Both the position numbers and the translations under genes were made by a program. From a bacterium (lineage in GTDB: Bacteria > Patescibacteriota > Patescibacteriia > Magasanikbacterales > GWA2-37-8), in the NCBI GenBank assembly GCA_043810165.1, contig JBDROJ010000013.1, forward strand, positions 1-60,419: a stretch of DNA of 60,419 bases, read 5' to 3'. The first letter of the stretch is position 1, and each line of letters starts with the position of its first letter. The notes below the pieces were generated by a model that was not told the origin of the DNA, searched no databases, and saw only the letters and a list, made by a program, of their open reading frames with translations. Below, piece after piece: positions 17,632 to 18,965 of the stretch.

Positions 17632-17729
17632 GTTGGTTTATCCACAAAAAGAATAAATAAGGGACTGCGTCACATGGTGTGGTGCAGGACAAAACAGATC
17701 CCGATTAAGTCGGGAGAAAGGAGTGGCCA

Positions 17730-18014
17730 ATGGCCATCCTAGGACAGATCGATGAGGCGACGCTGGCGCGTCGCCTGGACCAGACCCGTAAAGCCCGTGC
17801 CCGGCAGAATAACCAGGCGCGGGCAAAAAGTTTTTTCTCCACCAAGCCCTTGAAGGGTGCGGTGGAGGAGTTGTCCTCGCGTCTCCGCCAGGAGCGTGAG
17901 GACAGTACTCACACCGGCTTGCACCGGCGTAACACATCCGGGCGTTGGATCGCCCGTGACGAGCAGATGGCCGCCATCGCAGCGGCTAATAAGCTCGAGA
18001 AGCTGGGTTACTAG
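17730..18014 (+). CDS. Arg-rich 94-aa hypothetical protein in the GC-rich island
   Basis: AAGGAG (17718-17723) lies 6 nt upstream of the ATG. G/C-rich codons. The antisense and other-frame ORFs here are expected high-GC artefacts. No family recognised. Confidence 0.5.
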   Translation: MAILGQIDEATLARRLDQTRKARARQNNQARAKSFFSTKPLKGAVEELSSRLRQEREDSTHTGLHRRNTSGRWIARDEQMAAIAAANKLEKLGY

Positions 18015-18152
18015 CCTAGCTTCTCCACCCCACCCAACGCCCGACCTTCAACCTATATGGTCGGGAAGTCCAAACATTCTATTTGGGCAATACACATCTC
18101 CTAGTCAATAACTAGGTTAGGGCAAAATTTGACCCCATAAAACGACAAGTTG

Positions 18153-18197
18153 GTGTCACCTACCACAAGTGGTGAGCCTAGAGAAAGCAGATCCTCA
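18153..18197 (+). repeat. 45-nt direct repeat R1 (upstream of the csx3-like ORF)
   Basis: gtgtcacctaccacaagtggtgagcctagagaaagcagatcctca. Matches R2 at 41 of 45 positions and contains the hairpin tcacc-N9-ggtga. Confidence 0.7.
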
Positions 18198-18324
18198 CGA
18201 GGTTCGTCAATTCCTCAACAATGAAATATTGACTTTAGCGGACGAGAACAACCTTGCCCTGTAAAACATGGGCACTCCTGTCACTGAAAAGTGAGTCCGC
18301 CAGGAGAAGATACGGAGATTGAAA

Positions 18325-18639
18325 ATGGCCGGCACCACCTACACCGTCACCATCATCGAGAACAACGAGTCAAACGTCACCCTGAAGCTGGGGTTCGGTA
18401 CCCCGGCGCAGAACGACGAGATCGTCCGCGACGCGGTCGCGGCGGTCAAGGAGCTCTCCCTCGAGGGTGGGAAGGTCGTGCGCCTGAACGGGCCCGCGTC
18501 GCTGCCGGTGGCCATCGCCATCGCGCACGAGGTCGGGCACAAGTTCGGTGCCGTCGCGGCGTTCGACCCCAAGCTGGGGAAGTACGTCGTGGCGATCTCG
18601 CACGACCCGTCGCTCACGGTGGGCGACCTCATCGACTGA
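18325..18639 (+). CDS. Csx3/Crn3-like protein (candidate cyclic tetra-adenylate ring nuclease fold)
   Basis: 104 aa. GGAG lies 7 nt upstream of the ATG. Third codon positions are almost all G/C. GKVVRLNGPASLPVAIAIAHEVGHKFGAVAAFDPKLGKYVVAISHDPSLTVGDLID aligns, from my memory of A. fulgidus Csx3 AF1864, with GVVISGRGPIWLHCFLAHKYHHTPFVAVYDPRLGAVVVQSHSELREGDVID. This includes the His, Asp (in DPxLG) and His (in SH) positions. Confidence 0.6.
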   Translation: MAGTTYTVTIIENNESNVTLKLGFGTPAQNDEIVRDAVAAVKELSLEGGKVVRLNGPASLPVAIAIAHEVGHKFGAVAAFDPKLGKYVVAISHDPSLTVGDLID

Positions 18640-18750
18640 TCATCGATGAGCCAAAATTTCCTGACTGATCACCAGGTTAGAGCAAAGATTCGGTTCGGAC
18701 GAAGTTTCGTCTATACCGCTTCAAGCCTGGCTCTAGAAAATGATAGGCGA

Positions 18751-18795
18751 GTGTCACCTACTACAAGTGGTGAGCCACGAGGAAGCAGATCCTCA
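18751..18795 (+). repeat. 45-nt direct repeat R2 (downstream of the csx3-like ORF)
   Basis: gtgtcacctactacaagtggtgagccacgaggaagcagatcctca. Matches R1 at 41 of 45 positions. Confidence 0.7.
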
Positions 18796-18824
18796 AAAAT
18801 TGGAAATAGAGGCTGTTTATATAG

Positions 18825-18864
18825 CCCTGAATCAGAACTCGCCTTTGGCTCGTTCGGTTCAGGG
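18825..18864. repeat. Hairpin repeat of the CCTGAA-C-GAA...GGTTCAGG family
   Basis: ccctgaatcagaactcgcctttggctcgttcggttcaggg. Related hairpins at 18966-19004, 46173-46208 and 46252-46289. Confidence 0.5.
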
Positions 18865-18882
18865 CAAGTAGTACTCGGGCAA

Positions 18883-18904
18883 GGGTGAGCCGCACAGCTC
18901 ACCC
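18883..18904 (+). terminator. GC-rich hairpin at the right edge of the island (possible terminator)
   Basis: 8-bp stem gggtgagc/gctcaccc with loop cgcaca. There is no clear U-run. Confidence 0.3.
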
Positions 18905-18965
18905 GACCCCGTAATTGTTCTTAAATATTTTGAGAATAGTTATGGGGGTAAACCCCTCATTCTGG

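Follow-up and report, generated by a model that had tools for sequence, protein, structure and literature searches.

A GC-rich Csx3-family cassette, probably exchanged laterally, upstream of rpsL-rpsG-fusA in a Magasanikbacteria-like bacterium

The Csx3/Crn3 ring nuclease of Archaeoglobus fulgidus (AF_1864, hereafter AfCsx3; 3WZI, 6YUD) is a stand-alone protein of approximately 100 amino acids (aa) of the Pfam family PF09620, with a STAS-like fold distant from CARF, in which H57, H60, D69, R71, and H80 have been reported as absolutely conserved or essential (PMC7371418). Fusions of Csx3 with AAA domains are known from cyanobacterial type III CRISPR loci (PMC12409355). A gene of this family, ORF2, lies within a GC-rich island at positions 17651–18905 of contig JBDROJ010000013.1 (assembly GCA_043810165.1; 60,419 nucleotides, hereafter “the window”) from a bacterium of the Candidate Phyla Radiation (CPR), upstream of the rpsL-rpsG-fusA operon. 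The island is probably a laterally exchanged accessory cassette, drawn from a GC-rich gene pool that extends across the CPR and placed in a hypervariable slot. The locus resembles replacement-type flexible islands and tRNA-flanked genomic islands in its deviant composition, its sibling-specific cargo at a conserved site, and its tRNA-type border genes. Unlike those islands, it has no integrase and no identical att repeats, and its borders are not canonical tRNAs but a diverged pair of tRNA-like genes, each with an antisense small RNA (sRNA).

The island contains two open reading frames (ORFs), listed with their G+C content overall and at third codon positions (GC3).

17730–18014, plus strand: ORF1, 94 aa, rich in Arg, Ala, and Gln (GC 61%, GC3 0.74)
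18325–18639, plus strand: ORF2, Csx3/Crn3-family protein, 104 aa from ATG, with an alternative TTG start at 18319 (GC 66%, GC3 0.95)

ORF2 matches the Pfam family PF09620 (Cas_csx3) over residues 41–105 with 26.1 bits (cut-off 21, E = 8e-6), and has 472 homologous proteins at E ≤ 1e-3, most of which carry a precomputed PF09620 match while several are named Csx3 by their source. A profile built from 27 homologues matches AF_1864 chains (6YUD, 6VJG, and 3WZI) over residues 42–103, with E values that are significant but weak (6.6e-4 to 0.0012). In the alignment of the 27 sequences, H70, H74, D83, and H95 are invariant and the motifs NGPASLP and FDPKLG are present; the HMMER alignment equates H70, D83, and H95 with AfCsx3 H57, D69, and H80, and the two proteins share the motifs G-x-GP, AH, (F/Y)DP(K/R)LG, and SH. 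On the other hand, the column of AfCsx3 H60 is Gly or Ala in this family, the invariant H74 lying one residue further on (HxxxH instead of HxxH), and the position of R71 is an invariant Lys (K85). Judged by these alignments, ORF2 is a Csx3-family member with a variant active-site spacing, and its activity is a prediction only. The AlphaFold2 model of ORF2 is confident (pLDDT 92.7), and the top Foldseek matches in the PDB are STAS anti-sigma antagonists and Cap5 SAVED domains, which are weak (E = 0.03–0.1). By family membership, ORF2 would form a dimer of dimers and act as a Mn2+-dependent phosphodiesterase on cyclic tetra-adenylate (cA4) or short oligoadenylate RNA, and it would do so outside a CRISPR context. 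Unlike AF_1864, ORF2 and its CPR homologues have no type III CRISPR-Cas neighbors: cas10, RAMP, CARF, and SAVED genes were found neither among the 36 longer ORFs scanned in the window nor in the CPR loci, and an association with type III CRISPR was seen only for cyanobacterial homologues. Like the orphan or mobile-element ring nucleases of viruses (AcrIII-1/Crn2), ORF2 is a candidate cA4 degrader without a signaling system on laterally moving DNA; it differs from them in belonging to another protein family, and searches for copies found none in phages and plasmid copies only in cyanobacteria. An anti-defense role for ORF2, suggested by this analogy, would be pure speculation.

The G+C content of the island is 55.9%, against 37.9% for the whole window and a mean of 37.6% (standard deviation 3.6, maximum 47.0) in windows of equal size (1255 nucleotides, nt) taken elsewhere in it, which bears out the GC-rich island that a preliminary description of this DNA had proposed. 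In 300-nt windows the island peaks at 67.7%, and none outside the locus exceeds 54%. The excess is concentrated in the two ORFs, the spacers being intermediate (47–50%). Compared to a GC3 of 0.18–0.47 in the 37 other ORFs, the values of ORF1 (z = 6.8) and ORF2 (z = 10.5) are high, and the three codon positions of ORF1 have a GC content of 0.62, 0.48, and 0.74; third positions that are almost all G or C, as first described, are thus seen in ORF2 and only moderately so in ORF1. Sharp edges had also been claimed. The left edge is indeed abrupt, from 29% at 17438–17650 to 49–61%, whereas the right edge is gradual, with 50% at 18640–18905, 39% at 18906–19062, and then a tRNA-like gene of 60%. An alignment with the sibling locus L095 places the variable part at approximately 17698 to 18808, near the limits first proposed. 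The good Shine-Dalgarno sequences noted for both ORFs are present (AAGGAG, 6 nt 5′ of the ATG at 17730, and GGAG, 7 nt 5′ of the ATG at 18325), and the stated lack of an integrase or transposase is borne out among the 36 longer ORFs scanned. The statement that no cas gene is present is nominally wrong because ORF2 itself belongs to a family named CRISPR-associated Csx3. The composition supports an island that is foreign to the surrounding sequence.

Homologues of ORF2 were compared among the best 120 of the 472 protein matches and the best 80 of 172 genomic loci (numbered with the prefix L). Among these, the named close homologues come from Parcubacteria, Paceibacterota, Kazan, Saccharibacteria, Uhrbacteria, Harrisonbacteria, and similar groups, and the matches other than CPR come from filamentous cyanobacteria and a few other phyla. 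The closest genes (77–86% aa identity) are located on CPR-type or unlabelled metagenome contigs. The cyanobacterial genes (approximately 50% identity) lie among type III CRISPR RAMP genes or on CRISPR-bearing plasmids and have a host-like GC3, whereas a GC excess of Csx3 recurs in the CPR loci. The G+C of Csx3 and of its flanks is 0.65/0.44 in L015, 0.67/0.42 in L016, 0.68/0.48 in L050, and 0.53/0.33 in L056, and the Csx3 gene of L089 has a GC3 of 0.98 beside genes of 0.16–0.27; the GC3 of Csx3 forms a continuum of 0.22–0.97. Neighboring genes share the bias, namely those for a P-loop protein of approximately 190 aa (VLCGPPRSGKSC...ACPDGEG), an NTase-like protein of approximately 170 aa, DEAD/DEAH helicases, a DHH-like protein of approximately 300 aa, and MoxR-VWA pairs; the majority of these have no Pfam family. 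The locus L099 contains the full cluster (P-loop, Csx3 with 77% identity to ORF2, NTase-like, helicase, and DHH-like) among housekeeping genes of similar composition (rplS GC3 0.72), and L012, a Patescibacteria contig of 683 kb with 59% G+C, has the same Csx3-cluster genes. Both are GC-rich Patescibacteria-type genomes that carry the cluster at near-native composition, and genomes of these types are plausible kinds of donor.

In L006, an AAA_18 domain is fused to Csx3 in a protein of 610 aa, a connection between the P-loop/Csx3 pair and the Csx3-AAA fusions already known. Most CPR Csx3 genes likewise adjoin the P-loop gene, unlike the Csx3 gene described here, which stands alone with no P-loop partner in the 60 kb. 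The literature searches made returned nothing specific on Csx3 in the CPR, and the loci compared show that Csx3/Crn3 homologues are widespread in CRISPR-poor Patescibacteria, either stand-alone or paired with the P-loop protein. If they are active on cyclic oligoadenylates, CPR bacteria would need to encounter such signals, which could stem from unrecognised cyclases of their own or from their hosts. Moreover, Csx3 genes typically form GC-rich islets in AT-rich CPR genomes, which could mislead binning or contamination filters.

The EF-G protein encoded in the window is 79–87% identical to those of Candidatus Magasanikbacteria and other Patescibacteria metagenome-assembled genomes, and only 57% identical to one from Saccharibacteria; on this sequence evidence, the host is a Magasanikbacteria-like CPR bacterium and not a member of the Saccharibacteria. 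Comparison of the locus with those of sibling genomes involves the following features.

12749–19950, no strand: larger variable segment between uvrD and rpsL, missing there in L096 and L097 (the window has the order TGT-UvrD)
17360–17434, minus strand: tRNA-like gene A of the left module, a cloverleaf with an 8-nt anticodon loop (C-UUACCA-U), A3:U70, and an encoded CCA (ARAGORN “tRNA-???”)
17526–17597, minus strand, approximate limits: sRNA A, with a promoter at 17631–17604 and a terminator hairpin at 17553–17532 (scan)
17655–17697, plus strand: conserved left junction, a AAGGGACUGC...GGUGCAGGACAAAA hairpin at which the similarity to L095 (810–1190) ends
18808–19030, plus strand: RA element, a structured non-coding right arm with the blocks ACUCGGG, GCACA, and ACUCUCUCC, shared with L095
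19063–19137, minus strand: tRNA-like gene B of the right module, with an 8-nt loop (A-UUACCA-C), G3:U70, and an encoded CCA (ARAGORN)
19228–19297, minus strand, approximate limits: sRNA B, with a consensus promoter (TTGACA-16-TATAAT) at 19331–19304 and a terminator at 19255–19234

The sibling L095 is an independent ENA assembly whose EF-G is 85% identical and whose fusA region is approximately 77% identical in nucleotides. To the left of the cargo, it shares region R (a conserved non-coding sequence between the TrmB regulator gene and the cargo; L095 40–553 corresponds to 16663–17179), the left tRNA-like/sRNA module, and the junction hairpin as far as the position matching approximately 17697 (blastn, 17250–17694 with L095 747–1125). 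To the right, it shares the RA element, a second sRNA and tRNA-like gene, and the small ORF preceding rpsL. Between the modules, L095 carries a DHH-like gene (GC3 0.82), two zinc-ribbon ORFs, and a DEAH helicase of 1035 aa (GC3 0.59). Relatives of this cargo adjoin Csx3 in L099, L072, L077, L026, and L013; the same slot is thus occupied by a different part of one gene set in each of the two siblings. No remnants of the partner genes were found in the window, nor remnants of Csx3 in L095. Three further siblings, L094, L096, and L097 (82–83% EF-G identity), have neither modules nor Csx3 upstream of rpsL. In L096 and L097, at most one small ORF lies between UvrD and the rpsL downstream of it, and by that comparison the segment 12749–19950 is an insertion, which contains a 962-aa protein, the TrmB regulator, region R, both modules, the cargo, and a 74-aa ORF. 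The island is thus variable among siblings, a point on which the preliminary description had called for comparison.

The neighboring regulator provides a second line of evidence. A divergent TrmB gene adjoins the Csx3 cluster in 11 CPR loci, and the pairwise identities of Csx3 and TrmB show no correlation (Spearman −0.08, n = 55 pairs, a comparison of identities and not a formal tree reconciliation). ORF2 is 79% identical to the Csx3 of L088, but the adjacent TrmB proteins are only 29% identical. The TrmB protein of the window is closest to those of L050 (39%) and L015 (36%), whereas its Csx3 is closest to those of L088, L089, L091, and L008 (79–86%) and 54% identical to those of L050 and L015. 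Approximately 80% of the codons at conserved residues are identical between ORF2 and its counterparts in L088, L089, and L091, where the flanks vary strongly in GC3 (0.16–0.50). The Csx3 gene of L008 is 86% identical in amino acids with a GC3 of 0.53, and its third-position differences comprise 34 changes from GC to AT (window to L008) against 2 from AT to GC, as amelioration in L008 would produce. Distant relatives do carry Csx3 at the same GC, an outcome that the preliminary description would have taken as a sign of ancient residence. Nevertheless, the incongruent similarity and the polymorphism among siblings argue for a circulating GC-rich gene pool rather than ancient residence. Of the recent acquisition from a high-GC donor that had been proposed, the lateral transfer is favored by foreign composition, sibling variability, and Csx3/TrmB incongruence, and the actinobacterial donor is not supported.

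In the scenario we favor, genes for Csx3, the P-loop protein, the NTase-like protein, DEAD/DEAH helicases, and the DHH-like protein would circulate among Patescibacteria. The set would be compositionally native in GC-rich members (55–62% G+C) and would appear as a GC-rich island in AT-rich recipients, ameliorating over time. Entry may occur by DNA uptake, followed by homologous or illegitimate recombination in the conserved flanks, of which the left consists of region R and a tRNA-like/sRNA module and the right of the RA element and the second module; nothing points to a site-specific recombinase. No integrase, transposase, or att-type repeat is found at the borders, and this mode of entry is putative. 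A ComEC with Competence and metallo-beta-lactamase domains, which may provide the route of uptake, is encoded in the window by two overlapping ORFs (37648–40028 and 40009–40623), with a DOT1-like methyltransferase next in order.

The source first suggested was an actinobacterial, high-GC host from which an episymbiotic CPR cell would recently have acquired the island. High G+C and GC3 do resemble actinobacterial coding DNA, the known hosts of Saccharibacteria are Actinobacteria, and some Saccharibacteria (L016, L049, and L059) carry a GC-rich Csx3. However, the host here is Magasanikbacteria-like, and an actinobacterial host is therefore not the obvious expectation. An actinobacterial Csx3 was found neither among the protein matches and loci compared nor among 72,556 plasmids (13 matches); in the matches listed, the named close homologues are all from the CPR and the more distant ones are mostly cyanobacterial. 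Searches of Csx3 by tblastn gave no match in phages and only cyanobacterial matches in plasmids, and the island itself, for which the preliminary description had looked to phages as well as high-GC genomes, had no blastn match in phage and plasmid collections. In addition, the D3 RNA motif and the Csx3 leader described below are common to CPR loci only, and GC-rich Patescibacteria-type genomes carry the cluster. An actinobacterial donor is accordingly very improbable, and the GC-rich island most likely came from other, GC-richer CPR bacteria. A survey traced most of the detectable transfers into Patescibacteria to donors that were themselves Patescibacteria, with 109 such events and a single one from Actinomycetota (PMC12455944). 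The tempting story of a host-to-symbiont transfer would thus be corrected to GC-rich DNA from a pool shared among the CPR. An assembly chimera, in which a GC-rich fragment of another organism was joined into an AT-rich contig, would account for the abrupt left edge in metagenome-type data. It is hardly credible, as both flanks also adjoin GC-rich cargo in the independent assembly L095, GC-rich Csx3 genes occur beside AT-rich genes in more than 15 independent assemblies (NCBI, JGI, ENA, and Logan), the spacers are intermediate in composition, and locus-specific hairpins also occur in region R outside the island.

Several observations weigh against lateral exchange of a Csx3 cassette. No near-identical donor was found, the best match having 86% aa and 83% nt identity, and no mobility gene, target duplication, or att-like direct repeat was found at the junctions. 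AfCsx3 is absent from the 50 best Foldseek matches of the ORF2 model, and with glycine at the H60 position and lysine for R71, the activity of ORF2 on cA4 is not assured. Even in genomes of high GC, the Csx3 gene exceeds its surroundings (GC3 approximately 0.9, against 0.6–0.7), so a gene-specific bias may add to the signal, and the recurrent divergent TrmB-Csx3 arrangement could also mark an old locus inherited vertically. At such a locus, selection on the gene itself (possibly for expression level, mRNA stability, or avoidance of A/U-rich motifs that a partner RNase cuts) would maintain the GC3; consistent with this, Csx3 is the GC3-richest gene of its neighborhood in many CPR lineages, GC-rich ones included, parts of region R recur together with TrmB beside Csx3 in the 11 loci, and mobility genes were not found. 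We regard this as unlikely given that siblings have other cargo or lack the locus, that Csx3 and TrmB similarities are uncorrelated, and that ORF2 shares approximately 80% of its codons at conserved residues with genes of very different hosts. Moreover, Csx3 has a host-like GC3 in L068 (0.22), L077 (0.45), L011 (0.48), and L008 (0.53), and AT-rich partner genes occur (c70 in L026 and L013, GC3 0.28), which shows that high GC3 is dispensable. The window and L095 could also descend from a single ancestral insertion of the full GC-rich cluster between the modules, after which Csx3 was kept here and the DHH-like and helicase genes in L095. The flanks (region R, modules, and RA) are homologous and each cargo is a different part of the cluster found in full in L099, but the missing genes left no remnants in either genome, a GC3 of 0.95 would be hard to keep without selection over the divergence of the hosts (fusA region approximately 77% nt), and ORF1 and the two zinc-ribbon ORFs are unshared, which makes differential loss a rather improbable account.

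The two modules that border the cargo are diverged copies of each other. The tRNA-like genes A and B are 86% identical and the modules 79–86% identical overall, with compensatory changes. The 5′ end of sRNA A is complementary to the anticodon arm of tRNA-like gene A (17397–17415 with 17576–17594, 19 nt, 84%), and that of sRNA B to the arm of tRNA-like gene B in 18 of 18 nt. Five instances of the module were identified (17360–17650 and 19063–19350 in the window, 829–1060 and 7700–7901 in L095, and 4152–4400 in L092), in all of which the 5′ end of an sRNA of approximately 70 nt, which has a near-consensus promoter and a terminator of its own, is complementary over 18–21 nt, with covariation, to the 5′ strand of the anticodon stem and the loop. 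The tRNA-like genes have an 8-nt anticodon loop (N-UUACCA-N), an encoded CCA, and usually a G3:U70 pair, found in copy B, L092, and the second L095 copy. Since the gene order is reversed in one L095 copy, the tRNA-like gene and the sRNA are separate transcription units; folded as a single transcript, the two have a z-score of −8.1. In Rfam, the modules have sub-threshold matches only, to Tymo_tRNA-like with 40.7 (copy B) and 31.6 bits and to tRNA-Sec with 35.3 bits (threshold 47), copy A matching both families, and there is no RF00005 match. A canonical tRNA identity was rejected on the basis of the 8-nt anticodon loop, the ARAGORN call of “tRNA-???”, and scores below the Rfam tRNA threshold. 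The module architecture corresponds to no Rfam family and to nothing in the literature searched, and on tRNA-like genes with 8-nt loops in the CPR the literature searches likewise returned nothing specific. Scans of viral contigs for both module patterns gave no match, and a metagenome scan for the tRNA-like pattern returned L092, a true relative, and L093, a chance match.

A perfect DnaA-box-like sequence, TTATCCACA, is located immediately 5′ of the −35 element in both sRNA promoters (17638–17646 and 19338–19346), and L092 has TTATCCCCA. An origin of replication was considered for the two TTATCCACA boxes and set aside: the 60 kb contain only three perfect boxes, of which two belong to the modules, and near-matches scarcely exceed chance (29 against 20.3 expected).

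The preliminary description had suggested that the duplicated modules serve as a scaffold for insertion or recombination. They do bracket the exchange slot, but att-type repeats and a recombinase were not found; the modules are diverged paralogous RNA genes, and any such role is therefore passive, that of a hot spot or of homology arms. The suggestion is supported only insofar as the modules bracket a conserved, recombinase-less hot spot. Cargo between paired tRNA-like genes, each with a covarying antisense sRNA, is present in at least two related genomes. A bolder proposal, which we consider doubtful when all its parts are taken jointly, is that the modules, region R, and RA constitute an undescribed recombinase-less platform for cargo exchange in Magasanikbacteria-like CPR bacteria. 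The platform would swap GC-rich genes for RNA or oligonucleotide processing that are found across the CPR (Csx3/Crn3 nuclease, P-loop protein, NTase-like protein, DEAD/DEAH helicase, and DHH-like phosphoesterase), the tRNA-like RNAs might be coupled to the cargo as substrates, decoys, or regulators, and the orphan Csx3 might act on oligoadenylate signals or RNA tails without type III CRISPR.

Additional non-coding elements are located within and next to the island.

17699–17715, plus strand: TCCCGA-N5-TCGGGA hairpin at the start of the cargo, just 5′ of the ribosome-binding site of ORF1
18126–18198, plus strand: D3 RNA motif, copy 1, three hairpins with the terminal loop AAGCAGA (covariance model 79 bits, covariation)
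18202–18318, plus strand: Csx3 leader, approximately 117 nt, approximately 97% identical to L050 5874–5996 (tblastx, alignment)
18724–18796, plus strand: D3 RNA motif, copy 2, a direct repeat of copy 1 downstream of Csx3 (covariance model 89.7 bits)
19029–19059, no strand: TCCCGA...TCGGGA hairpin flanked by runs of A and T, which ends the plus-strand unit in the manner of a terminator and adjoins module B

The D3 motif follows the Csx3 stop codon by 30–200 nt in at least ten CPR loci (L088 at 4703–4776, L063 at 6384–6456, L015 at 6431–6506, L089 at 2675–2753, and L012, L018, L045, L085, L059, and L046), and in the window it also precedes Csx3. The D3 model has no match in the L095 cargo, and its matches elsewhere are downstream of Csx3 genes only. 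Short, one-orientation genes that appear to lack promoters, separated by structured repeats (D3 and RA) downstream of a conserved junction, are reminiscent of integron cassette arrays. Unlike those arrays, there is no IntI integrase and there are no attC-like sites, and D3 is tied to Csx3 and not to every cassette; the integron reading was ruled out because D3 is Csx3-specific and no integrase is present. Next to the leader that is nearly identical to that of L050, Csx3 is only 54% and TrmB 39% identical in amino acids. Such near-identity beside diverged coding sequence indicates mosaic recombination, or else an extremely constrained element. A riboswitch-like fold of the leader was considered and is unsupported by folding alone (z = −1.5).

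The RA element, of approximately 200 nt, occurs once in the window and twice in L095 (approximately 3800–4040 and 7470–7650), after each cargo block (alignment of 18796–19062 with L095 3790–4110 and 7440–7700). Region R, at 16860–17359 and at 200–830 in L095, has parts in L050, L015, and L089 and shows apparent compensatory changes in stems, such as CCGAGUGCGUC... / ...GACAUUCGG. Upstream of it are strong divergent promoters (16469–16441 on the minus strand and 16556–16584 on the plus strand) and a terminator (16734–16763), and region R may be a long leader or a novel non-coding RNA. Rfam searches at gathering and E-value thresholds gave nothing for the island, region R, RA, D3, or the leader. 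Hairpins of the TCCCGA...TCGGGA type number three in the window (17040–17056, 17699–17715, and 19034–19054), all within this locus, against 0.02 expected; a similar hairpin ends the Csx3 unit of L018. REP-like hairpin repeats (GTCATTGCGAG / GTCATCCTGAGC...GAAGGATC) are intergenic at 19650–19800 and 17290–17325, at 4580–4620 in L092, and at 790–820 in L095.

ORF1 has no Pfam match and no homologue in a word-indexed search. An exhaustive search of 1.84 billion representatives recovered six homologues, of which two match over the full length (52% identity, E = 1e-18), and an N-terminal MAIVGKLD and a C-terminal LEKLGF motif are conserved. ORF1 is thus a real protein of a rare small family. A kinship with the small GC-rich ORFs of other Csx3 loci (85 aa in L091, and others) was considered and rejected, as there is no similarity.

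Elsewhere in the window, a protein with a helix-turn-helix and a SocA/Panacea antitoxin domain is followed by an overlapping ORF of 132 aa (24516–25638), possibly a toxin-antitoxin pair, and the same pair is found in L077. The leucyl-tRNA synthetase ORF (34551–37613) has an alpha/beta-hydrolase domain (Pfam Abhydrolase_1, residues 480–601) inserted after the editing domain. Finally, a giant protein is encoded by a reading frame (53002–60417) that runs for at least 2472 codons, to the last positions of the window, without a stop codon.

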